DNA of 64,000 nucleotides. Source: an uncultured Gammaproteobacteria bacterium. GTDB lineage: Bacteria > Patescibacteriota > Microgenomatia > Daviesbacterales > UBA10151. The stretch is taken from positions 1,362-65,361 of the forward strand of contig CAYOSW010000005.1 of assembly GCA_964406775.1 (NCBI GenBank), read 5' to 3'. The notes beneath the pieces are model-generated. The model was not told where the DNA came from. It worked only from the letters and a program-made list of their open reading frames with translations, and ran no database searches. Shown piece by piece: positions 2,915-39,521 of the stretch. Within the stretch, counting starts at the first letter, position 1; the number at the start of each line of letters is the position of its first letter. The position numbers and the translations under genes were made by a program.

Positions 2915-4243
2915 CTATGAAAGGAATTTATCGTAGTTTTTCTCAATCATTTTGCTTTCAAACTGCTTGGCAGTATCTAAAATTACCGAAACCACGATCA
3001 AAAGAGATGTTCCTCCGACAACTAAAGTTGAGATTCCGGTAAAGGAGGAGATTACCGAAGGCATAACCGCAATTGTTCCCAGGAATATCGCACCGGCCAA
3101 AGTTATCCTTACCAGGATGTAGTTTAAATACGAGGCCGTTGCACTGCCCGGTCTGATACCCGGAACAAACCCACCGTATTTTTTAATTTCGTCTGCAATC
3201 TTGGTCGGATTAAAAACTACCGCAGTATAAAAATAAGTAAATCCGATAACCAAAAGGAAATAGGTAAGGTTATATGCTATTGATTCCGGCTGGAAGTTCT
3301 GCACCAAAAATCTGCCGATATTTTGCAGAACCGGAACAGGGGACTGGGCTAAAAACTGACTCCCGAAAGAGGGGAGCAGTACTAAGGAAATTGCAAAAAT
3401 AATCGGAATAACACCGGTTTGGTTAACGCGCAGAGGCAGGTATGTTTGGACCTGGCTCATTCTCCGGCCGGCCGAAAAACGCCTGGCGTAATGAATCTGG
3501 ATTTGTCTGCGTCCTTCGTTAATAAATACAATTGCTGCGGTTACGAGCAATCCGACTGCTACAAAAATTAGAATATTTAAAAGTTGGGACTGCTCTACAA
3601 TTGATACAGTCTGGAATAAAACAACCGGCGCTCTTGCCAAAATACCGACTAAAATCAAAATGGAAATACCGTTGCCGATTCCGTACTCGGTTAAAAGCTC
3701 ACCCAGCCACATTGTAAACACCGTACCTGCAACCATAGCAACAATGATTGAAAGAATCGCCAAAGGAGTTCCGGCCTCAACCAGACCCTGATTTTTCAAA
3801 AGCGTATACATACCGACCGACTGAATAACTGCCAAAGGAATCGTCAGGAACCGGGTATATTGATTAATCTTCTGACGGCCCATCTCCCCTTCTTTGCTCA
3901 TTTCTTCAAGCTTCGGGAAAACCATAGTTAAAAGCTGCATAATAATCGAGGCGTTAATATACGGATTCAAACCGAGCGCCAAAACGGAAAAGTTAGTTAA
4001 GGTTCCTCCGGAAAAAATATCCAAAAGCCCGAGGAGCTGGTTACTGCCGAAAAGCTGACGGATGCCTTCAACATTAATACCCGCAATCGGGATCTGTGCT
4101 GACAGACGGAAAACAAAAATGATAATGGCGGTAATGATTAATTTGCGGCGGAGCTCCGGAATTTTTAAGGCATTTAATATCGGTTGAATTAAACTAGCCA
4201 ACTTTGCCTCCTGCAGTTTCGATCTTTTCTTTGACCTTCGCAC
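2915..4243 (-). CDS. secY: preprotein translocase subunit SecY
   Basis: 442 aa polytopic membrane ORF located between rplO and adk. Confidence 0.93.
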
Positions 4244-4631
4244 TTACAGGAATTTCTACGACTAATCCTTTTACATTAAGCTCTCCCTTATTTAATACTT
4301 TTACTCCTCTTTTCAGCTTGCCCCGTCCGGATACAAGTCCGGCTTCAACCAGGGTTTCGATGCTTACTGTTGAATTAGTCTTGAATTTGTTTAAATCTTC
4401 GAGTGAAATCACAACCGGTGTCGGATCGGCTTTTTTATTTCCCCAACCGCGGACAAACGGAAGTTTCTTATATAAAGGCAAGCTTCCTCCGATGAAGGCT
4501 GCAGGAATTTTTCCGCGGGCTTTTTGTCCCTTTGAACCGCGTCCCCCGGTCTTACCTTTTCCTGACCCGGTTCCCCGGCCTAAACGCTTTTTACTTCTTT
4601 CAATTGTTTTAGGTAATTCGCTTAATTTCAT
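4194..4631 (-). CDS. rplO: 50S ribosomal protein L15
   Basis: 145 aa ORF with a Gly/Arg/Lys-rich N-terminal region ([20 protein letters not shown]) typical of L15. Position upstream of secY. Confidence 0.9.
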
Positions 4632-5236
4632 TTTGTTTCCTCTTTCTTTTTAGGCTCTTCCTTTTTCTCAGCCTTTTCAGCTTTCTTTTGTTCTTTTGCT
4701 TCTTTCAATGCTTTATTTTCATCTTCCTGTTTTTTATCGGCAACCGCATATTTGGATGCGGTAATTTCTTTCAAAGCGTGCAATGTTGCATAAACATTTG
4801 AAGCTTTGTTGTTGGTTCCCAGGATTTTTGAAACGACATCGTGAATTCCTGCCGCTTCTACTACAACCCTGACCGGACCTCCCGCAATAACTCCGGTTCC
4901 CTTAGGTGCCGGTTTAAGTAAAATAATCGCTGCACCGAGTTTGACGTTAACGGAATGCAGAATTGTCCTGCCGTCTTTTAACGGAACCATAACCATATGT
5001 TTTTTCGCATAACTGGTCGCTTTCCTGACTGCCGATTGAACATCCGCTGCTTTACCCAGTCCGACTCCGACTTTGCCTTTTTTATCACCGACGACAACCA
5101 ATACCGAAAGTGATCTTTTATCTCCACCCTTGGTTTTTTTGGAAACACGGTTGACCTGGACTACCTTCTCGTAAAAATCTGAAGGTTCCTGAAGTCTTCT
5201 GTTATCTCTTCTGTTATCACGTTGTTTAAAATCCAT
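4628..5236 (-). CDS. rpsE: 30S ribosomal protein S5 with Lys/Glu-rich C-terminal extension
   Basis: 202 aa ORF. The S5 dsRBD core (VNRVSKKTKGG, GGPVRVV) is followed by a roughly 45 aa K/E-rich tail ([35 protein letters not shown]). Confidence 0.9.
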   Translation of the reverse strand: MDFKQRDNRRDNRRLQEPSDFYEKVVQVNRVSKKTKGGDKRSLSVLVVVGDKKGKVGVGLGKAADVQSAVRKATSYAKKHMVMVPLKDGRTILHSVNVKLGAAIILLKPAPKGTGVIAGGPVRVVVEAAGIHDVVSKILGTNNKASNVYATLHALKEITASKYAVADKKQEDENKALKEAKEQKKAEKAEKKEEPKKKEETK

Positions 5237-5571
5237 TAGAACTGCAAACCTCCCTTTCTTAATCCTTCAGCAACAGCCGCAACCCGGCCGTGATAGGCAA
5301 ATCCCCCTCGGTCAAAAATTATTTTGGTAATTTTTGCTTTAACTGCTTTTTGAGCCAGAGTTTCACCGACTTTTGTTGCCCTTTCGGTTTTTGTACCGCC
5401 TTTGGCGTTCAGGTCAGATTCAGAAGCCAATGTTTTACCGGCATTATCGTCAATAATTTGAGCATAAATATGCTGACCGGATTTAAATACGGCGACTCTC
5501 GGTTTTTCGGCAGTACCGAAAATATTTTTTCTGACTCTTTTATGCTTACTTACTCTTAATATTTTTTTCAT
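5236..5571 (-). CDS. rplR: 50S ribosomal protein L18
   Basis: 111 aa ORF with the L18 pattern (RVAVFKS..HIYAQIIDD, FDRGGF.YHGRV). Position between rpsE and rplF. Confidence 0.9.
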   Translation of the reverse strand: MKKILRVSKHKRVRKNIFGTAEKPRVAVFKSGQHIYAQIIDDNAGKTLASESDLNAKGGTKTERATKVGETLAQKAVKAKITKIIFDRGGFAYHGRVAAVAEGLRKGGLQF

Positions 5572-11947: not shown

Positions 11948-12720
11948 TACTTTGCCTCCTTAGCCGGTGCTTTTTCTTCTTTTTTTGCAACTTTTTTCTC
12001 AAGAGCTTCAACAGCTTCTTTAGTTAAAAATAAACTCTGAGCTTTAATCACTTCAAAAGCATTCAGGTCTGCAACCGGTATCAGATTTACGTTCTCCAGA
12101 TTGCTTGTAGCTCTTTTTGCCAAGTCGGAAACTTTATCGGTAACGATAAGAGCTGATTTTGTCTCAATATTTTTTATAAATTTGGCGAATTCGGAAGTTT
12201 TACCTGTAACTTTATCGAGACCGGAAATTGCGGAAATGCCTTTATCAAGAAGTTTTTGTGAAAGGGCGGAGACGAGAGACGCTTTTTTCATTTTCTTGGG
12301 AAGGTCAAGGGTGGCTGTTCTGGACTTCGGACCGAGCGCTATACCTCCTCCGACGAAAATAGGAGCTCTGACACCACCGTGACGTGCACGTCCCGTTCCT
12401 TTTTGGCGGTAGATTTTTCTGGTTGAACCTTCGACTTCACCGCGGGTTTTAGTGTTTGAGAAATGACCTTTTTGATTGTTTAAATAAACTCTCAAAGCCT
12501 GAGAAAGGAGAGCTTTGTTCACTTCCGCTCCAAAAACGGATTTAGGAAGATCAAGACTTCCGGATTCTTTTCCTAAAAGAGAGTAAACAGTTACAGAAAA
12601 TCCGGAAGTTTTCGCGGAAGCTTTTACCGCCGGCTTAACTGCAATTTCTGCCTCAACTTTTTCAATTTTAGCTTTGGGTGCAGCTTTTTTAACAGTGGTT
12701 TCTTTTTTTGCGATAGCCAT
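11947..12720 (-). CDS. rplD: 50S ribosomal protein L4 with K/A/E-rich N- and C-terminal extensions
   Basis: 257 aa ORF with the L4 core (SNTKTRGEV.GS.RK.YRQKGTGRAR.G). Conserved order rplC-rplD-rplW. Confidence 0.85.
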   Translation of the reverse strand: MAIAKKETTVKKAAPKAKIEKVEAEIAVKPAVKASAKTSGFSVTVYSLLGKESGSLDLPKSVFGAEVNKALLSQALRVYLNNQKGHFSNTKTRGEVEGSTRKIYRQKGTGRARHGGVRAPIFVGGGIALGPKSRTATLDLPKKMKKASLVSALSQKLLDKGISAISGLDKVTGKTSEFAKFIKNIETKSALIVTDKVSDLAKRATSNLENVNLIPVADLNAFEVIKAQSLFLTKEAVEALEKKVAKKEEKAPAKEAK

Positions 12721-13550
12721 TATTTTGTCTCCTCTTCAGCTTTTACCTCTTCGGCCGGAGCTTCATTTACTTCTTCTTTTGGTGCTTCAGCTGCGGGCTC
12801 GGATGCGGCGGCTTCTTCAGGAACCTCTGTTGTGTCTCCTGCTGCCATTTGTTCTTTATCTGAAGGTACTTCTTCCTCGTCCTCTTTCTCTTCAGGAGGA
12901 GGTGTATAACCTTTGATAACGCCGGTTTTTGTAATTAATACGAGTCCTCCGTAAGGACCGGGGATTGAGCCTTTAATACTGACTACGTTATTTGTTCTGT
13001 CAACTGCGATCACTTCAAGTCCGCGGGTTGTTGCTGTTTCCGCACCCATATGACCTGCCATTCTTTTTCCCTTTAAAACACGTCCCGGAGTTGTACCCGT
13101 ACCGATTGATCCCGGTGCGCGGTGCCTGTCCGATTGTCCGTGTGTTTTAGGTCCTCCGTGGAATCCGTGGCGTCTCACGCCTCCCTGGAAACCGCGTCCT
13201 TTTTCGGTTCCGGTTACTTTAACTTCATCGCCTTTTCTGACAACCTGATTGGCTTTAATTTCTTTACCGTTTTCCAGTCCGCTTAAATCGCTCTCCTGGA
13301 CTCTTACTTCTTTTACGAATCTTAAGTTCTCGGCAACTCCGGCTTTTTTGAAGTGTCCCTGCTGAGGCTTCTTTACGCTTTTTTTGGTGGATGCTGCGAT
13401 CTGTACGGAGTTATAGCCTTCTTTATCGGTAGTTTTAATTTGAGTCACGAAATTGGGCTCAACTAAAACTTTAGTTATAGCCACTCTGCGGCCGCGGGTA
13501 TCATAACCCGAACTCATCTCTTTTTTTATACCAAGTATTGTTTGAATCAC
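12720..13550 (-). CDS. rplC: 50S ribosomal protein L3 with acidic C-terminal extension
   Basis: 276 aa ORF with the L3 core (MIQTILGIKKEM...GKGFQGGV.RHGF). Roughly 60 aa E/P/A-rich tail. The start codon is GTG on the minus strand (plus-strand CAC at 13548..13550, reverse complement GTG). Confidence 0.9.
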   Translation of the reverse strand: MIQTILGIKKEMSSGYDTRGRRVAITKVLVEPNFVTQIKTTDKEGYNSVQIAASTKKSVKKPQQGHFKKAGVAENLRFVKEVRVQESDLSGLENGKEIKANQVVRKGDEVKVTGTEKGRGFQGGVRRHGFHGGPKTHGQSDRHRAPGSIGTGTTPGRVLKGKRMAGHMGAETATTRGLEVIAVDRTNNVVSIKGSIPGPYGGLVLITKTGVIKGYTPPPEEKEDEEEVPSDKEQMAAGDTTEVPEEAAASEPAAEAPKEEVNEAPAEEVKAEEETK

Positions 13551-13570
13551 GTTTTTTTATTTCCTTTTTT

Positions 13571-13610
13571 TAAACAAGAAAAAAGTGAGTCCGGTTGCCC
13601 GGTACTCACT
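13571..13610 (-). terminator. intrinsic-terminator-like GC hairpin followed by a U-run (on minus strand), just upstream of the rplC RBS
   Basis: The plus strand reads aaaaaagtgagtccggttgcccggtactcact. Read on the minus strand this is the stem agtgagt ... actcact with a GC-rich inner ccgg ... ccgg, then a UUUUUCUUGUUU tract. Confidence 0.5.
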
Positions 13611-13817
13611 TCAGTAAATCGCCATATTACCAATCGCCGTATCTAACCTGTCTGCTCGACGCGCGACTAACTGAAAAGTATTTCTTTTTAAATCAACAAG
13701 CTTTAAGCATGTAGTCTTGGAATTCTAGCAGACCCCGTGCGTAAATGCAAGCGACAGTGAAGCTGTCGTCCTGAACGGAGTGAAGGATCTCTAGCGTATG
13801 CGAGTTACAATAAGTTT

Positions 13818-14123
13818 ATGCCTCATTATGTATATATTCTGACCAACAAATCTTATACTTTATATGCCGGGTCATCGAAAAATCTGTTTCGCAGAGTTAA
13901 TGAACATACTCGAAAAAAATCTAAGTTTGGATTTACTGCAAAATATAATCTCAACAAATTAATTTACTTCAAAGAGGTTGAAACCTACCGTGAAGCTATA
14001 GAACTGGAGAGAAAAATTAAGGGATGGACAAGAAAAAAGAAAATAGAGCTGATAAAAAGTTTGAATCCGGAATTCAGGGATTTAGCGGATCAATCTGAAA
14101 CAAGTTCAGAGATCCTTCGCTAA
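13818..14123 (+). CDS. GIY-YIG nuclease superfamily protein, YhbQ/UPF0213-like
   Basis: 101 aa ORF starting MPHYVYILTNKSYTLYAGSSKNLFRRVNEH, the GIY-YIG N-terminal motif. Plus-strand gene lying between the minus-strand rpsJ and rplC genes. Confidence 0.75.
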   Translation: MPHYVYILTNKSYTLYAGSSKNLFRRVNEHTRKKSKFGFTAKYNLNKLIYFKEVETYREAIELERKIKGWTRKKKIELIKSLNPEFRDLADQSETSSEILR

Positions 14124-14145
14124 GAGCTCAGGATGACGCTTCTCG

Positions 14146-14454
14146 TCACATCTTAACTTCGATATCAACGCCTGCAGGTAATTCCAAGTGCATTAAGGAA
14201 TCGATTGTCTTATCTGTCGGTTCAATAATCTCAACAATTCTTTTGTGAACTTTAATTTCGAAAGCTTCCTGGGAATTTTTATCGGTAAATGTGGATTTCG
14301 GGACTGTAATAACGGATCTTTTTGTGGGTAAAGGGATCGGGCCGGCAATTTTTGCACCTGTTCGCAAAGCAGTATCAAGCAACTGCTCGCAAGTGCTGTC
14401 TAAAACTCTATAATCAAATGATTTAAGTCTGACTCTAATTCTGCCTTTTGCCAT
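14146..14454 (-). CDS. rpsJ: 30S ribosomal protein S10
   Basis: 102 aa ORF with a typical S10 N-terminus (MAKGRIRVRLKSFD...L...KRSVITVPKS). Confidence 0.95.
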   Translation of the reverse strand: MAKGRIRVRLKSFDYRVLDSTCEQLLDTALRTGAKIAGPIPLPTKRSVITVPKSTFTDKNSQEAFEIKVHKRIVEIIEPTDKTIDSLMHLELPAGVDIEVKM

Positions 14455-14493: not shown

Positions 14494-14514
14494 AAAAAAG
14501 AGCCTTTTGGGCTC
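14494..14514 (-). terminator. rho-independent terminator downstream of tuf
   Basis: Plus strand aaaaaag agccttttgggctc. On the minus strand this is the hairpin gagcccaaaaggctc followed by a UUUUUU run. It lies 25 to 45 nt after the tuf stop. Confidence 0.6.
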
Positions 14515-14538: not shown

Positions 14539-15717
14539 TTAGGAGATAATTTTAGTAATAACTCCTGCTCCAACGGTTTTACCACCTTCGCGGATAGCAA
14601 ACCTTAAGCCTTCTTCCATAGCAACCGGAGTAATAAGTTTTACGTTAATTTTAGTTGTATCTCCGGGCATAGCCATTTCAACACCTTCAGGAAGTATAAC
14701 TTCTCCGGTCACGTCAGTTGTTCTGACATAAAACTGAGGTCTGTATCCTTTAAAGAAAGGTGTGTGTCTTCCGCCTTCGTCTTTACCCAAGATATAGATT
14801 TCAGCTTCAAATTCTGCGTGAGGTTTAATGGATCCCGGTTTTGCGAGAACTTGTCCGCGCTCTACATCGTCTTTTTCAATTCCGCGGAGCAATACTCCGG
14901 CGTTGTCTCCGGCTTCTCCCTGATCAAGTAATTTGTGGAACATTTCGATACCTGTTACAACTGATTTAGTTGTAGGTCTGATTCCGACAATTTCGATTTC
15001 CTCGTTGATCTTAACAACTCCTCTTTCGATTCTTCCTGTTACAACGGTTCCGCGTCCTTTAATTGAGAAAACGTCTTCAACAGCCATAAGGAAAGGCTTG
15101 TCTTTTTCGCGTACAGGGGTCGGAATCCATTCGTCTACCGCATTCATTAAGTCTTCTATTTCTTTTACTGCTTCTGCATCGCCTTCAAGAGCTTTTTTAG
15201 CAGATCCGCGGATAATAGGTGAATTTGAATCAAATTCATATTTCTTAAGTAAGTCGCGAACTTCTTCTTCAACAAGCTCAAGAAGTTCAGGATCGTCAAC
15301 CATATCGCATTTGTTAAGGAAAACAACAATAGCCGGAACTCCAACTTGTTTTGCAAGCAGTAAGTGCTCTCTTGTCTGAGGCATAGGTCCGTCCGGAGCG
15401 GAAACAACGAGGATTGCACCGTCAGTCTGAGCTGCACCGGTAATCATATTCTTGATGTAGTCTGCGTGACCAGGCATATCGATGTGTGCGTAGTGTCTTT
15501 TTTCTGTTTGATATTCCTGGTGAGAAATGTTGATTGTGATTCCGCGGGCTCTTTCTTCAGGAGCTGAATCGATTTGGTCGTATGCTCTGAATTCTGCCAT
15601 TCCTTTGTCTGCGAGGACTTTGGTAATAGCTGCGGTTAAGGTTGTCTTCCCGTGGTCAACGTGACCCATTGTTCCGACGTTTACGTGTGGTTTTGATCTG
15701 TCAAATGTTCCTGCCAT
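14539..15717 (-). CDS. tuf: elongation factor Tu
   Basis: 392 aa ORF with [23 protein letters not shown] and NKCD GTPase motifs. Confidence 0.97.
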
Positions 15718-15915: not shown

Positions 15916-16542
15916 GTGTCAAAGTTTCGTCCAGCAAGCCGGTCAGGGTTCATCTATAGTTTCCGTATGTCAGCCCAACCGGAAGCAGCAGTCGGCTATA
16001 GCCGTTTATTTCAATACTCCGCTACGGCAGAAGAGAGAGGTATAGTTGCAGACCAACCTGCACCGGAAATAAATCCGTCAGCACTTTCGGAGCTTTTAAG
16101 AGATGCTCTCCCCATCGGCCGGCCCGGTGAACTGGAACTCAGACACCCTTTCAGAGTTATTATTACGGCCTTATCGGTGACGGGAGACGATTACGCTGCC
16201 TACTTACCCGATGTTGAATCCGCACTCGATAAAACAGATACCGGACAGGTTACCGAAATTGGCGTCAGCGTTACTTTAGCCGGATCCGATATTCAGCCTG
16301 ACCGCGAAGCAGGACCTTTTATTAATCCGCTTCGTCTTTATGACGGAAAAACCGGATCCCTGGGTTTAAGCACAGTTACAGCTAACTTCCTCCTGGCTGC
16401 CGGAATAAGAAGACAGGCCGGAAGGATAAGAACGGGGTTTTCCCAGCCTCACGATACCCGGGATATGTACGGCTTTGCAAAACAAAGGACCGACCGGATG
16501 ATTGCCGGGCAGATTGAACCGGTTATCAGACTTAATACTTGA
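15916..16542 (+). CDS. hypothetical protein (A/G/R/P-rich, no recognisable domain), GC-richer than its surroundings
   Basis: 208 aa uninterrupted ORF in a segment that is visibly GC-richer than the flanking genes. No motif recognised. Inserted between tuf and fusA, on the strand opposite to both. Confidence 0.45.
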   Translation: MSKFRPASRSGFIYSFRMSAQPEAAVGYSRLFQYSATAEERGIVADQPAPEINPSALSELLRDALPIGRPGELELRHPFRVIITALSVTGDDYAAYLPDVESALDKTDTGQVTEIGVSVTLAGSDIQPDREAGPFINPLRLYDGKTGSLGLSTVTANFLLAAGIRRQAGRIRTGFSQPHDTRDMYGFAKQRTDRMIAGQIEPVIRLNT

Positions 16543-16574
16543 TAATCTTCTTATATATTTATATGGTTAAGTAA

Positions 16575-16952
16575 GTGAAGCATCAGTCAGGAATTGCCCA
16601 GGTTTATTTTCTTTTGATTATTCTTGCCGGAATTGCGATTTCTGTTTTCCTTGTTCAATATACTCAGGTTTTTAAACCCAAAGCTTATTCAGACGATGAG
16701 CTTGCCGCTTATTGCCAGGAAATTACCCAAAACAATACACCTAAAGGAGCCGGTCTTATCAGAATACCTGCCACGGCTCTGGACGGAAGATTTCAGGTCA
16801 TTGATGACTCGGTGGTTGACACCCAAAGCGGAGCGGCATTCTTTTACCTTGATTCATCAGACGGAACTCTGCGGGTACGGCGGAATCTTGATAATACCAA
16901 CGATAACGAAGAGAATAACCAGTTTATTGAAGTTTATATAGATAACCCTTAG
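16575..16952 (+). CDS. small membrane-anchored or secreted protein
   Basis: 125 aa ORF with an N-terminal hydrophobic helix (VYFLLIILAGIAISVFLV) and a polar, Asn/Asp-rich C-terminus. Ends 6 nt before the fusA stop, so the two genes are convergent. Confidence 0.45.
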   Translation: MKHQSGIAQVYFLLIILAGIAISVFLVQYTQVFKPKAYSDDELAAYCQEITQNNTPKGAGLIRIPATALDGRFQVIDDSVVDTQSGAAFFYLDSSDGTLRVRRNLDNTNDNEENNQFIEVYIDNP

Positions 16953-16957
16953 AAGAT

Positions 16958-19099
16958 TTAACTTTCAACTCTTCCGGTAAATCCGGAATCAGCAATAACT
17001 TTTTGAGTGATATTTGAAGGAACGGGCTCGTAATGTGATGGTTCAATATATGCTGTTGCTCTTCCCTGGGACATTGAACGGATAGCGGTAATATAGCCAG
17101 AAAGTTCAGCCAAAGGAACGAAGGCGTTGATAACAGTTGCATTTCCCCTCTTTTCGGTTCCCTGGATCTGGGCTCTTTTTGAGGATAAGTCTCCGATTAA
17201 ATCTCCCATAAATTCATCAGGAGTTGAAACCTCAACCTTCATTATCGGCTCAAGGAGAATCAAACCTGCTTTTTTGGCAGCTTCGGAAAGTCCTAAGGAA
17301 CCGGCAATCTTAAAGGCCATTTCCGAAGAATCAACATCGTGGAATGATCCGTCGTAAACCGTAACTTTAATATCCACAACCGGGAATCCTGCAAGCAGTC
17401 CGGTATCTTCTTTTTCTTCAACACCCTTACCGATAGGCGCAATGAATTCTTTCGGAATAGCTCCTCCGACGATTTCGGAAACGAATTCACGTCCGGTTCC
17501 TCTCGGGAGAGGCTCAATTCTGAGTAAACAGTGACCGTACTGACCGCGTCCTCCGGTTTGGCGCACATACTTACCTTCTCCTGTTGCCGGAAGAGTTATT
17601 GTTTCTTTATAGGCAACCTGAGGATCTCCGACGTTGGCTTCAACTTTAAATTCCCTCTTCATACGGTCAACGATAATTTCCAAATGAAGCTCACCCATTC
17701 CGGAAATTATTGTCTGTCCGGTTTCAGGGTTGGCTTTAACTCTGAAAGTCGGATCTTCTTCTGCCAGTCTTTGCAGAGCGAGTCCTAATTTTTCCTGATC
17801 GGATTTGGTTTTAGGCTCTATTGCAAGTGAGATAACGGGTTCTGCAAAGTTGATCGATTCCAAAACTAACGGATTTCCTTCATCAACAATTGAATCTCCG
17901 GTAATTGTATCTTTAAGACCCACAACCGCAACGATTTCTCCAGCATATGCTTCATCAATTTCTTCACGGTCGTTGGCGTGCATTAAAAGCACCCGGCCAA
18001 TACGTTCTTTGATTTGTTTTGTAGAATTGTAAATAGTTGATCCGGCTTTTAATGTTCCGGAATAAACTCTGACATAAGTTAAACGGCCGACGTGAGGATC
18101 AATCTGAATTTTAAAAGCGAGAGCCCCGAGAGGTGCATCTTTTGTGTTTGACTGAGTTACTTCTTCTCCTGTTTGGGAATTTTTACCCTTAACGTTCGGG
18201 ATATCAAGAGGTGAAGGTAAAAATTCCATAACCGCATCGAGCATTGGTTGCACACCTTTATTGCGCAGTGATGAGCCTGCCATAACCGGAACGATCTTTT
18301 TAGCGATAACTGCAGCTCTTAACGCTTTTTTAAGCTCATCGATTGAGATCTCTTCACCGTTTAAGTATTTCTCGAGCAGAACCTCGTCAGTTGAGGCAAT
18401 CTCCTCAACTAATTTCTCGCGGTGTTTTTTAACTTCATCAACCATATCGGCCGGAATGGGCTGTTCCTCAAATTTAGCGCCGGTCTGATCACCGAGCCAA
18501 ATCCAAGCCTTTTCGGTTAAAAGATCAACTATCCCTTTGAAATCGTTTTCAACACCAATAGGTAAGTTATAAGGAAGAGCATTCGCACCCAGGCGGTCAC
18601 GGGCGGATTGGATAGTTCCCAAAAAGTCAGCGCCTAAAACATCCATTTTATTGGAGAAGGCAATCAAAGGTACACCGTATTTATCTGCCTGTCTCCAGAC
18701 AGTTTCGGTTTGGGACTGAACACCTGAAGCCGAATCAAGAACTATGACTCCCCCGTCAAGCACACGAAGCGAACGCTCAACCTCAACTGTAAAGTCAACG
18801 TGACCGGGAGTATCGATTAAGTTAATCCGGAATTCTTCATCTTTGAAAGGACCGGATTTGGGAGTCCAGAAAGTGGTAACAGCTGCGGATACGATAGTAA
18901 TACCGCGCTCGCGCTCCTGTTCCATCCAATCGGTGGTGGTTGTACCTTCATCAATATCACCGATCTTATAAGTACGTCCGGTATAAAAAAGAATACGTTC
19001 GGTGGTAGTAGTTTTTCCCGCATCAATGTGGGCAATGATCCCGATATTTCTGATACGGTCTAACGGAAAATCGCGTTTTGTTTTCGTTGTAACTGCCAT
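16958..19099 (-). CDS. fusA: elongation factor G
   Basis: 713 aa ORF with [20 protein letters not shown] and NKMD motifs and the EF-G domain IV/V region. Confidence 0.97.
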
Positions 19100-19527: not shown

Positions 19528-20826
19528 ATGGAATTTGAGGTAATTGAACAAACTTATCCTGAAAACTTCCGCTCGGACATAACGCGCGAGCTCGGCGACC
19601 ATATTAACAAACGCCACAGCATCGTCTTTATAGGTATGCGCAGGGTCGGCATATCTAATTTCTTAAGGTTTTTTCTGTATCACAAACAACTCCGCCAAAA
19701 AACTTCGGCAGACAAACACCTCCTTATCGCCATCGATTTAAACGATCTTATCGAACGGACTATTCCTTCTTTTTGGGTATTAACGTTAAAGAGAGTTCTT
19801 GATACCGTCGAAGGGTCCGATTTTGCCCCTAAAACTAAAAAATATATCGAGAATCTATTTCTTGACGGTATCCAGTCCAAAAATACTTTTCTTCTTATAG
19901 AAAATATTAAAAAAGCTCTAAGTAAAATTATTTCCGAAGGTGTTTTCCCGACAATTTTTTTCATCCGGTTTGACAGGATTTCCGAATCCGCAACAGCCGA
20001 TTTTCTGGCAAATCTCGAAGGACTTAAAAGCTCAACCCACGGCAAGTTAAGCTATGTGTTCACAACTTCGCGCGGATTAAACTCCATCTCGCCAAAAGTC
20101 TTCTCGCACACTTCTCTTTCTCTTGCCGAAACGGAGATATTTTTAAAACCGGCAAGCCCGGAAGATCTTCAGGTAATTTGCGATGCCTATATCAAGAGAT
20201 TCGGGCTCCGGATTTCCGCGGAAACGGAGAAAGAATTAATTAAGCTTACCGGAGGCTACGTCCAATACCTCCAGCTGGCTCTAATTACCTTAAACGAGCC
20301 TGAGGTGAATAATAAAAAAATCAGTAATCTGTCCGAACTCTTAGAAAACGACGAGCGGATCAAACTTCAATCGGAAGAACTTTGGGAAGGCCTTACCGGA
20401 GATGAACAGGAAATCCTGCTTAAAGTTGTTGAGGGTGAAAAACTTACGGAAAAAGATTTAAAAGACAATAAATATTTATCAGACAGCGGATTTATGGTTA
20501 AACTCAAAAACGGCTTCAATATTTTCAGTCCGCTTTTTGAAAAGTTCCTGAAGAAAAAAGCCGAAAAAGGGGAGGGGAGTAACGGGAAAATCGATCTCTC
20601 CAAAAAAGAGCATCTGCTATTTTCCTTCCTTAAAGACAATTTAGGTGAGATTTGTGAGCGGGAAGCCATAATTGAGGCCGTCTGGCCGGAAGAGGAGGCT
20701 TTAGGGGTCTCTGATTGGGCAATTGACCGCCTTGTCGCCCGCCTGCGCAAAAAGATTAAGGATGAAGGCGAATTTGAAATAGTAACAATAAAAACCCGGG
20801 GATTTAAATTAATAGGAAAAAATTAA
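19528..20826 (+). CDS. STAND/AAA-like NTPase with degenerate P-loop fused to a C-terminal OmpR/PhoB-type winged-helix DNA-binding domain
   Basis: 432 aa ORF. The N-terminal region has IVFIGMRRVGISNF, which fits GxxxxGxS with Ile in the Lys position, and a Walker B-like LLIAIDLND. The C-terminus (EREAIIEAVWPEE...DWAIDRLVARLRKKIKDEG.FEIVTIKTRGFKLIG) matches the trans_reg_C wHTH. Confidence 0.55.
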   Translation: MEFEVIEQTYPENFRSDITRELGDHINKRHSIVFIGMRRVGISNFLRFFLYHKQLRQKTSADKHLLIAIDLNDLIERTIPSFWVLTLKRVLDTVEGSDFAPKTKKYIENLFLDGIQSKNTFLLIENIKKALSKIISEGVFPTIFFIRFDRISESATADFLANLEGLKSSTHGKLSYVFTTSRGLNSISPKVFSHTSLSLAETEIFLKPASPEDLQVICDAYIKRFGLRISAETEKELIKLTGGYVQYLQLALITLNEPEVNNKKISNLSELLENDERIKLQSEELWEGLTGDEQEILLKVVEGEKLTEKDLKDNKYLSDSGFMVKLKNGFNIFSPLFEKFLKKKAEKGEGSNGKIDLSKKEHLLFSFLKDNLGEICEREAIIEAVWPEEEALGVSDWAIDRLVARLRKKIKDEGEFEIVTIKTRGFKLIGKN

Positions 20827-21161
20827 CTGTAATTTCTGGTTCTGTCCAGATATGGCGCTTCTTTCCAATCGTGACTTATTCTTCTTCCTGAAAAGCTGGA
20901 GTCTGTAGCTACAGATAAACTTCTGAAATGGTGGCCGTCAGCACCGTGCTCACGTTCTATACCATCTTCATCAGGATATTTGTCTCCATAGTCAGCCCAA
21001 ACAGTCACGGCAGTTTTAGCCAGTTCCGCCGGCTCATCCCAATTTATTTTCGCTCCGTAGGGTAAAACCTCAAAACCTAAACCTTTAGGCTTCAAATGGT
21101 GAAACCTTTCTCTTGTAGTTCTTCGTTCTGTCCCGGGTCTGCCTGCGATATGTTCTTTCAT
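20823..21161 (-). CDS. hypothetical protein (His/Asp/Gly-rich)
   Basis: 112 aa ORF in a relatively GC-rich segment. No recognisable motif. First gene after the rpsG 3' remnant. Confidence 0.35.
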   Translation of the reverse strand: MKEHIAGRPGTERRTTRERFHHLKPKGLGFEVLPYGAKINWDEPAELAKTAVTVWADYGDKYPDEDGIEREHGADGHHFRSLSVATDSSFSGRRISHDWKEAPYLDRTRNYS

Positions 21162-39269: not shown

Positions 39270-39521
39270 TTATACATTAATTTCCAGTTTTAATACCTGA
39301 ATTTTAGTCTCCCGTTTCCAACTTTTTATTTCCGCTTCCCTTTTTAAGGCCTCGGACTTACTTTCAAGTTCTTCCGAATATATTATTTTTACCGGAGGAT
39401 GGGAGCGGGTATAGCTTCCGCCTTTGCCCCTTTCGTGATCTTTAAATCTCTTTTCCAGGTTATTTGTTAATCCTGTATAAAGACTTTGATCCGAGCATAA
39501 GAGTATATAGACAAACCACAT
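39270..39521 (-). CDS. GIY-YIG nuclease superfamily protein, YhbQ/UPF0213-like
   Basis: 83 aa ORF starting MWFVYILLCSDQSLYTGLTNNLEKRFKDHERGKG. Second YhbQ-like paralog in the window. Confidence 0.8.
   Translation of the reverse strand: MWFVYILLCSDQSLYTGLTNNLEKRFKDHERGKGGSYTRSHPPVKIIYSEELESKSEALKREAEIKSWKRETKIQVLKLEINV

Follow-up and report, generated by a model that had tools for sequence, protein, structure and literature searches.

Predicted leader RNA of rplC and a GIY-YIG cassette in the rpsJ-rplC spacer of a relative of Candidatus Daviesbacteria

In the 64,000-nucleotide (nt) stretch of contig CAYOSW010000005.1 analysed here (the window; G+C content 42%), the ribosomal protein (r-protein) genes rpsJ and rplC are separated by a spacer of 595 nt, in line with the 600 bp given in a preliminary description of this DNA. 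The source is a member of the Candidate Phyla Radiation related to Candidatus Daviesbacteria, the name borne by homologues and by the nearest loci. Both genes are encoded on the minus strand, with rpsJ (S10; Pfam Ribosomal_S10, E=1e-32) upstream of rplC (L3; Pfam Ribosomal_L3), which heads a fused, unbroken string of S10 and spc genes (rplD, rplW, rplB ... rpsQ, rplN, rplX, rplE ...). The spacer consists of two independent units, a putative control region of rplC (13551-13750, minus strand) and a cassette (13751-14148) that carries a GIY-YIG gene of the UPF0213 type on the plus strand. The locus contains the following features:

12720-13550, minus: rplC
13551-14145: rpsJ-rplC spacer
13551-13715, minus: predicted rplC leader RNA of about 165 nt, comprising hairpin P0, an A/U-rich linker, the P1-P3 domain, the terminator and the ribosome-binding site
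13572-13611, minus: intrinsic terminator (putative attenuator), stem-loop at 13583-13611 and U-tract to 13572
13578-13677, minus: leader core, described by covariance model R1
13663-13673 with 13612-13622, minus: helix P1
13696-13712, minus: hairpin P0
13722-13750, minus: predicted rplC promoter, -35 box TTGCAT (13750-13745), 17-nt spacer, TGn and -10 box TAGAAT (13727-13722)
13751-14148: GIY-YIG cassette of 398 bp (left repeat, gene, right repeat), delimited by comparison with loci L160 and L159
13751-13811, plus: left inverted repeat, three hairpins and a TACAAT box
13751-13768, plus: left hairpin H1
13769-13787, plus: left H2, UCCU-GA-AC-GGA-GU-GA-AGGA
13791-13804, plus: left H3
13806-13811, plus: TACAAT box, 6 nt ahead of the ATG of the GIY-YIG gene
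13818-14123, plus: GIY-YIG gene, UPF0213 type, 101 amino acids (aa), catalytic domain only (PF01541, E=4.3e-15)
14094-14148, minus: right inverted repeat, three hairpins H1-H3
14094-14110, minus: right H3, UCUGAA-CUUGU-UUCAGA
14113-14133, minus: right H2, UCCU-GA-GCU-CUU-AGC-GA-AGGA
14134-14148, minus: right H1, UGACG-AGAAG-CGUCA
14146-14454, minus: rpsJ

Conserved putative control region upstream of rplC

Loci encoding relatives of L3 were collected with one genome per species, and tuf, rpsJ, the GIY-YIG gene (GIY gene), rplC and rplD were mapped in each (loci are numbered with the prefix L). The leader was compared across 24 Candidatus Daviesbacteria loci, 23 of which were aligned for the hairpin check, and the species representatives of Daviesbacteria number 21 (L007-L026 and L059).

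On the operon strand, the hairpin stem (13583-13611) reads GUGAGUACCGG-GCAA-CCGGACUCAC, extended by two further A-U pairs, and is followed by the U-tract UUUUUUCUUGUUU, which reaches 13572. With a 12-bp stem interrupted by one bulge, a GCAA loop and a folding energy of -19.8 kcal/mol, it has the form of an intrinsic terminator; a simple terminator scan passed over it owing to the bulged A. The 81-nt stretch containing the hairpin folds at -22.9 kcal/mol compared with -12.2 +/- 2.6 kcal/mol for shuffled sequences (z = -4.1; 0 of 200 shuffles as good), which bears out the hairpin and U-tract that had been noted at 13571-13610, about 20 nt upstream of the rplC ribosome-binding site. The Shine-Dalgarno sequence AGGA (13562-13565) follows the hairpin by about 20 nt, and the U-tract ends about 20 nt from the GTG start codon at 13550. 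Equivalent hairpins of -12 to -24 kcal/mol with 5-7 U were found in 22 of the 23 aligned loci; the remaining one, L008, was mis-anchored by the script, and the same hairpin was confirmed there by eye. While the base of the terminator (GAGUGAG/CUCACUC) is common to the relatives, the upper-stem sequences are unrelated. Across loci the hairpin lies 0-99 nt before rplC, with a distance of 9-29 nt between U-tract end and start codon in most cases.

All 24 Daviesbacteria loci have a pair of promoter boxes of the form TTGCA[T/A], 17-18 nt, TAnAAT or TAAACT, usually with TGn ahead of the second box; the pair precedes the leader core by 40-50 nt. In loci free of cargo genes it lies 2-23 nt behind the rpsJ stop codon. 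This conservation points to a promoter of the sigma-70 type directly downstream of rpsJ, with a predicted transcription start in the window near 13715 (minus strand).

The core of the predicted leader consists, in the window, of the 5' strand UUUCAGUUAGUCGCGCGUC, a variable loop, the segments GAUACGGCGAUUG and GGCGAUUUACUGA, and the terminator, which is stacked directly on P1. Relatives follow the pattern UUUCAGUAGAUCGCGCGUC, variable loop, GAUACGGCGAUUG, linker and AGCGAGAUACUGA, with the terminator directly behind. Covariance model R1, built on this core, was run over 512 kb including the whole window and 35 loci of other lineages. It recovered the window core with 76.2 bits (E=6.5e-13) and gave one match per Daviesbacteria locus, in every case directly ahead of rplC; there was no match in the 35 loci of other lineages or in the other 63.9 kb of the window, nor elsewhere in the 512 kb. 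L063, which was outside the R1 seed, scored 69 bits.

RNAalifold analysis of 23 sequences revealed a P2/P3 helix (GAUCGC.CGU / ACG.GCGAUU) with compensatory changes. When pairs were counted for P1a, P2/P3 and the terminator base, 92.8% of the cells were paired in the MAFFT alignment and 95.7% in a model-guided alignment, and sliding of the pairing partners reduced pairing to 26-53%. Five pairs, located in P2 and the terminator base, changed on both sides, and only 0-2 of 500 shuffles reached the observed values. Nucleotides of the 5' strand covary with the second segment and also with the third (helix P1b), which gives this strand two partners that exclude each other; the minimum-energy fold in the window pairs it with the third segment. 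No sequence able to pair with a terminator arm, and hence no classical antiterminator, was seen in the leader. Rfam searches identified no family at the gathering threshold in the whole window and none that was credible in the spacer at E<=10; a match to L20_leader (17.7 bits, E=1.6, against a gathering score of 58.7) was rejected as noise driven by the terminator. As a conserved, covarying structured RNA in the predicted 5' untranslated region of an r-protein operon, the element appears to be a further member of the ribosomal-leader class.

The rpsJ-rplC gap measures 180-2477 nt in every Daviesbacteria locus examined and mostly 10-130 nt in 30 loci of other phyla, with few exceptions of 245-616 nt in the Candidate Phyla Radiation (CPR). 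A GIY gene is present at this site in none of the 21 species representatives, and all 21 have the leader elements upstream of rplC, so the leader is independent of the GIY gene. The split between rpsJ and rplC is the ancestral state of Daviesbacteria, and the nuclease gene is a passenger. The non-canonical r-protein architecture pointed out in the preliminary description is thus real as far as the split is concerned, but it is a clade-wide state and not peculiar to this genome. Its further proposal, that rplC and the downstream genes are transcribed apart from rpsJ, is supported by the promoter boxes, structured leader and terminator in 24 of 24 loci, all of them predicted signals. Archaea keep rpsJ together with tuf and begin their L3 operon separately; the Daviesbacteria split may mirror this separation, and the position of the leader echoes it. 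In L005 and L006, the block of tuf, rpsJ and GIY gene is followed by glycogen-metabolism genes (GT5/GT4, GH57, GH15) in the place of leader and rplC, which means that rpsJ and rplC can be fully unlinked within the clade.

The GIY-YIG cassette and its exchangeable slot

The cassette is the less expected part of the locus, and its limits are defined by two close relatives. L160 is 98.4% identical to the window through rpsJ to position 14148 and 99.2% identical from 13750 (-35 box) on; the place of the cassette is taken by unrelated DNA of about 380 nt, in which a canonical terminator follows rpsJ. In this part of L160 (310-370), the terminator reads ACCGUCC-GAGA-GGUCGGU followed by U7, and a possible open reading frame (ORF) for a 37-codon membrane peptide was also noted there. 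L159 represents a third allele; its breakpoints coincide with those of L160, and it contains a 183-aa ORF. The window, L160 and L159 encode an identical S10 protein and differ in the content of the slot. Since the breakpoints fall at the outer ends of the repeats, the cassette extends from repeat end to repeat end (13751-14148). On one side it directly adjoins the last sense codon of rpsJ, on the other the -35 box of rplC, and it supplies a new TGA stop codon for rpsJ (14146-14148), located within right H1, its outermost hairpin. In each of the six rpsJ loci with a GIY gene the stop is TGA within TGAC..GTCA, and 14 of 16 loci without the GIY gene have TAA or TAG. The title of the preliminary description had implied that GIY gene and terminator hairpin jointly split the operon, which does not hold given the independence of the two; relatives that lack the gene and keep the same hairpin, the observation it had itself named as speaking against such a tie, were found in L160 (leader identity 99.2%) and in the 21 representatives.

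As originally proposed, the plus-strand gene antisense to the operon encodes a UPF0213/YhbQ-like GIY-YIG protein. This assignment is borne out by Pfam (PF01541, 56.2 bits against a cut-off of 22.6) and by the closest solved relatives, the 'hypothetical UPF0213' proteins EF2693 and BH0048 (PDB 1ywl, 1zg2), which like YhbQ belong by sequence to the same single-domain GIY-YIG fold family. The protein keeps the family-invariant residues Y6, Y16, G18, R26, H30, E64 and N83, and with a single GIY-YIG domain within the size range of about 90-100 aa it falls into the UPF0213 branch. By its domains it is not a homing endonuclease of the I-TevI/Seg type, as it comprises 101 aa without a DNA-binding domain and scores 18.5 bits with the intron-endonuclease family TIGR01453, below its cut-off of 56 bits. 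Among its 246 homologues, the named ones come from Daviesbacteria, Gottesmanbacteria and Patescibacteria. A second GIY-YIG paralogue (39270-39521, minus strand, 83 aa, 38% identity with the first) lies tightly between two genes of its own strand, a 345-aa ORF and a YqgF/RuvX-like gene; flanking UCCUGA..GAAGGA repeats were not found there.

Each repeat unit is about 55-60 nt long, with H1 outermost and H3 innermost, and the last codons of the GIY gene (ETSSEILR) are encoded by H3 and H2 of the right repeat. H2 has the form UCCU-GA-[short stem-loop]-GA-AGGA and usually lies inside GTCATCCTGAG..CGAAGGATCTC. Compensatory changes occur in all three stems (window, L003, L004, L005 and L063), for example in left H1 (GCGACAG/CUGUCG, GCGACGC/GCGUCG, GCGAUGC/GCAUCG) and left H3 (CUCGC/GCGAG vs CUCAC/GUGAG). 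Fold stability of the repeats is unexceptional (z = -1.1 and -0.4), and the support for them is comparative. As to whether the repeat acts as RNA or as DNA, G.U outnumbers A.C in the inner stems by 18 to 8, a weak signal. A hammerhead or k-turn assignment of UCCUGA..GAAGGA was rejected, as only the tandem G.A pairs are shared and the CUGA core and 3-nt bulge are lacking.

The junction between rpsJ and rplC is an insertion hot spot. Strains exchange its content, with the nuclease gene as one alternative among several. In other species, the slot holds a PIN toxin with a partner ORF, KilA-N, Hsp70-like, small sigma-70 region-4 or DUF3276 proteins, membrane ORFs or no cargo. L015 contains, after its own rpsJ, a second, foreign rpsJ 3' end (1154-1219, 21 codons, 95% identical to the S10 of the window) that precedes a 2.4-kb insert coding for Hsp70-like and sigma-70 region-4 proteins, which suggests that cargo arrives by recombination and carries the gene end along. 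Insertions between two transcription units would not be polar, so that the junction would tolerate them and become a hot spot. Such a safe harbour with base-precise boundaries would explain why foreign genes sit inside a seemingly essential operon.

The same repeat architecture accompanies GIY genes of 57-63% identity downstream of rpsJ (L063, L142), of frr (L109) and, within the str cluster, of rpsG (L150, L062). In L061 (region 4096-5273), a homologue of 54% identity has the downstream repeat copy only and lies beside the 3' end of a 23S rRNA gene. This 23S fragment, the single one of the CPR among the loci, comprises just the 3' domain and has an insertion of about 950 nt at a position corresponding to E. 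coli 2604/2605. For repeat statistics, 80 metagenomic GIY genes were used, with the region from -200 to +150 nt counted as near and compared with background elsewhere. The density of the H2 motif is 1.39 per kb near the genes compared with a background of 0.12 per kb. Of the upstream copies, 15 lie on the gene strand and 5 on the other, and the downstream ones show the reverse preference, with 15 on the opposite strand and 3 on that of the gene. An unbiased 7-mer enrichment recovered TGTCATYCTGAGCG..CGAAGGATCTC and its reverse complement; TGTCAT[C/T]C, CTGAGCG, CGAAGGA and AAGGATC are enriched upstream and their reverse complements downstream, 14-22-fold and in more than half of the loci. Solo H2 copies cap the rplC terminator hairpin in L009, L013, L017, L022 and L025 and also occur in the variable loop of the leader (L013, L015, L019) and beside the promoter (L020). 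In L142 (2912-2990) one H2 is nested in the inner stem of another, and the metagenomic loci L096, L121 and L070 contain tandem arrays; the short hairpin module may spread on its own.

The cassette might be mobilised by its nuclease, in a manner resembling REP/RAYT systems or homing endonucleases. In the broadest form of this idea, which we put forward tentatively and hold to be possible but doubtful, UPF0213-type GIY-YIG genes together with TGTCATYCTGAG...GAAGGATCTC inverted repeats would be unrecognised, widespread miniature autonomous mobile cassettes that insert at the 3' termini of conserved genes for translation (rpsJ, rpsG, frr, 23S rRNA), with solo modules spreading into the loops of other hairpins, among them the putative rplC attenuator at its tip in several Daviesbacteria. 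No paper was found that links UPF0213 or GIY-YIG genes to such flanking repeats. The idea offers a concrete hypothesis for the uncharacterised UPF0213 GIY-YIG proteins, namely that of a nuclease acting on its own flanking hairpins.

A serious alternative is a resident, vertically inherited housekeeping nuclease whose hairpins are ordinary expression signals such as terminators or operators, which we likewise regard as possible without favouring it. Identity of the GIY protein drops with host distance (99, 80, 76, 72 and 63%), and this divergence, which roughly tracks that of the hosts, is compatible both with repeated insertion and with long-standing vertical inheritance accompanied by losses. 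The upstream repeat lies at a fixed distance of -48 to -63 from the start codon, the place of a -35 box or operator, only two repeat copies are present in the 64-kb window, so that the repeat is not high-copy here, and the protein has no DNA-binding domain and no relatives found among viral contigs. Against a purely resident gene speak its presence or absence among strains of identical S10 protein with breakpoints exactly at the repeat ends, the same cassette architecture at rpsG, frr and other sites, solo and nested repeat modules elsewhere, and the random orientation of the GIY genes, which show no bias relative to their neighbours.

Both mobile systems named above share features with the cassette. 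REP sequences and their RAYT transposase genes (REPINs; concept in PMC3116915) likewise combine a small nuclease gene between inverted hairpin repeats with solo, nested and arrayed intergenic copies of the repeat. In contrast to RAYTs, the enzyme encoded here is a GIY-YIG protein and not an HUH/Y1 transposase, and instead of many copies the 64-kb window has the two flanking ones. Free-standing GIY-YIG homing endonuclease genes such as seg of phage T4 are also inserted between conserved genes, adjoin the 3' end of a conserved gene (here rpsJ, rpsG, frr and 23S rRNA) and are polymorphic among close relatives; presence/absence polymorphism at a fixed site was observed for L160 and L159 compared with the window. 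Unlike these, the cassette encodes a protein of only 101 aa without a DNA-binding domain and has inverted repeats, which are not a feature of homing genes.

Possible action of the leader

With only about 20 nt between the U-tract and the start of rplC, there is no room for a promoter downstream of the hairpin. As the sole conserved promoter lies upstream and none fits downstream, every rplC transcript must pass the hairpin, and a terminator that is read through by the transcripts of more than 20 essential genes would be an attenuator. The leader is therefore probably an r-protein attenuator that meters entry into the large r-protein operon. We assign a probability of about 0.6 to the overall explanation, which combines this ancestral rplC attenuator leader with a passenger cassette and builds on the observed anatomy, conservation, covariation, breakpoints and distribution; promoter activity, attenuation, ligand and manner of cassette movement are predictions from the sequence.

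In the proposed mechanism, the sigma-70-type promoter behind rpsJ would drive the leader of about 165 nt ahead of rplC, and rplC and the fused S10-spc genes would be expressed by read-through of the terminator. The level of read-through would be set autogenously by an r-protein of the operon, whose binding to the P1-P3 domain would either increase termination or block initiation. Autogenous control by one encoded protein is an established pattern of r-protein operons (PMC10931766, PMC7247131). L4 would be the first candidate by precedent, with L24, whose gene rplX is also located downstream in the operon, and L3 as alternatives; uL4 binds domain I of 23S rRNA, with L24 nearby (PMC4937340). A likeness of invariant leader nucleotides to a stretch of domain I in E. 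coli rRNA, which is not the cognate one, is a lead and does not count as evidence. The L4/L24 fragment of 23S rRNA is taken here to span roughly nt 295-343.

The proposed logic is that of the E. coli S10 leader shifted one gene downstream, and the comparison with L4-controlled attenuation drawn in the preliminary description appears apt; with leader and terminator in 24 of 24 loci, attenuation is the best reading of the predicted element. In E. coli, L4 and NusA stabilise a paused transcription complex at the terminator hairpin, an upstream hairpin is required before the terminator, and L4 represses translation too (PMC10931766). Both leaders place a hairpin domain 5' of a Rho-independent terminator just before the rplC-rplD-rplW-rplB genes, with no evident antiterminator and with the gene of the (putative) regulator, rplD, inside the controlled operon. 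In contrast to E. coli, the Daviesbacteria leader lies between rpsJ and rplC, which leaves rpsJ outside the unit, its 5' strand has two alternative partners, and there is no similarity in sequence or by Rfam. A candidate L4 leader of Archaeoglobi is also located directly upstream of rplC-rplD-rplW-rplB (PMC7247131, Table 1) and shares the position directly before rplC; it belongs to another domain of life and gave no covariance-model match, whereas the Daviesbacteria element has a bacterial intrinsic terminator. In the L20 (infC) and L10 leaders of Bacillus, r-protein binding decides intrinsic termination (PMC1865079, PMC4538822), although these use an antiterminator/terminator switch, and the L20_leader model reaches only 17.7 bits here. 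To our knowledge, r-protein autoregulation is known almost only from cultivated model phyla. The leader would, if the proposed mechanism is correct, represent an attenuator for the main r-protein operon in the CPR, one gene later than in E. coli.

Several points weigh against this interpretation. Both promoter and termination are deduced from sequence features, and a generic promoter scan did not list the site, with TTGCAT agreeing with TTGACA at 3 of 6 positions. The invariant nucleotides GCGUC and GAUACG contribute no information on covariation, which derives from few positions and perhaps 3-5 independent events, and the leader as a whole is barely more stable than shuffled sequences (z = -1.8). 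L4 is proposed as the ligand by precedent, and the likeness of GCGUC..GAUAC to E. coli 23S nt 301-323 (GCGUCUGGAAAGGCGCGCGAUAC) involves non-cognate rRNA and may be due to chance.

Other functions of the leader were also considered. A promoter followed by about 140 nt of structured RNA and a strong terminator resembles a small RNA gene, and the leader might be a free-standing RNA acting in trans, with rplC expressed by leakage through the terminator. We regard this as improbable because the element is always directly upstream of rplC, often 9-13 nt from its start and never elsewhere, supplies the sole conserved promoter of more than 20 essential genes, and is missing on the rpsJ side in L005, where rplC is not beside rpsJ. 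Sensing of a small molecule or tRNA by a riboswitch or T-box-like attenuator would account for the switch-like appearance of the two mutually exclusive pairings of the 5' strand. It is nonetheless unlikely, given that no Rfam riboswitch or T-box matched even at E<=10, that no antiterminator complementary to the terminator arms is visible and that the regulated genes encode purely r-proteins, among which autogenous control is usual (PMC7247131, PMC10931766). The canonical shape of the hairpin on the operon strand would also suit a constitutive terminator of tuf-rpsJ (and of antisense GIY transcription) with the rplC promoter located between hairpin and rplC, a very unlikely arrangement considering the little room left there (U-tract about 20 nt from the start here and 9-29 nt in most relatives), the location of all conserved promoter boxes upstream of the hairpin and the separate terminator behind rpsJ in L160. 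Finally, that insertion of the GIY gene made the split and brought the hairpin along, as their adjacency in the window might suggest, can practically be dismissed, since hairpin and leader are kept in relatives without the gene, the cassette ends at 13751, about 140 nt away from the hairpin, and L005 has the cassette without the leader.

In five loci (L003, L004, L008, L021 and L025), an extra structured insert of about 85 nt, absent in the window, lies between the U-tract of the leader and the start of rplC. It comprises a hairpin such as UUUAAAUGUCU..AGACAUUUAAA, followed by CGGGUCAAAU...AUUUGACCCAG around another hairpin, and could be a leader domain that only some loci possess, or else a small mobile insert. 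Furthermore, about 60-110 nt ahead of rplC the Curtissbacteria loci L027 and L028 have a G+C hairpin with UUUUUGG behind it, although the sequence differs and R1 does not match; attenuators at this place before rplC may extend to more Microgenomates than the leader family of Daviesbacteria does.

Neighbouring genes and further observations

Upstream of rpsJ, the window contains the following features:

14500-14514: small hairpin between tuf and rpsJ
14539-15717, minus: tuf
15916-16952, plus (antisense): two ORFs between fusA and tuf
16958-19099, minus: fusA

The hairpin between tuf and rpsJ (GAGCC-N5-GGCUC) has T-runs on both strands and is followed by a TATAAT box about 25 nt ahead of rpsJ, which may thus be partly insulated from tuf too. 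The str cluster is interrupted at other positions as well. The two plus-strand ORFs between fusA and tuf encode proteins of 208 and 125 aa without a Pfam match, and the gap between rpsG and fusA (19528-21161) contains a plus-strand gene whose 432-aa product has a Trans_reg_C domain, together with a 112-aa ORF; this gap is the slot that holds the GIY cassette in L150 and L062.

Three r-proteins encoded in the operon carry low-complexity extensions. L4 (11947-12720, 257 aa) has Lys/Ala-rich termini, L23 (11462-11947, 161 aa) a Lys-rich tail, and L3 (12720-13550, 276 aa) a Glu/Ala/Pro/Lys-rich C-terminal tail that is kept in L003 and L004.

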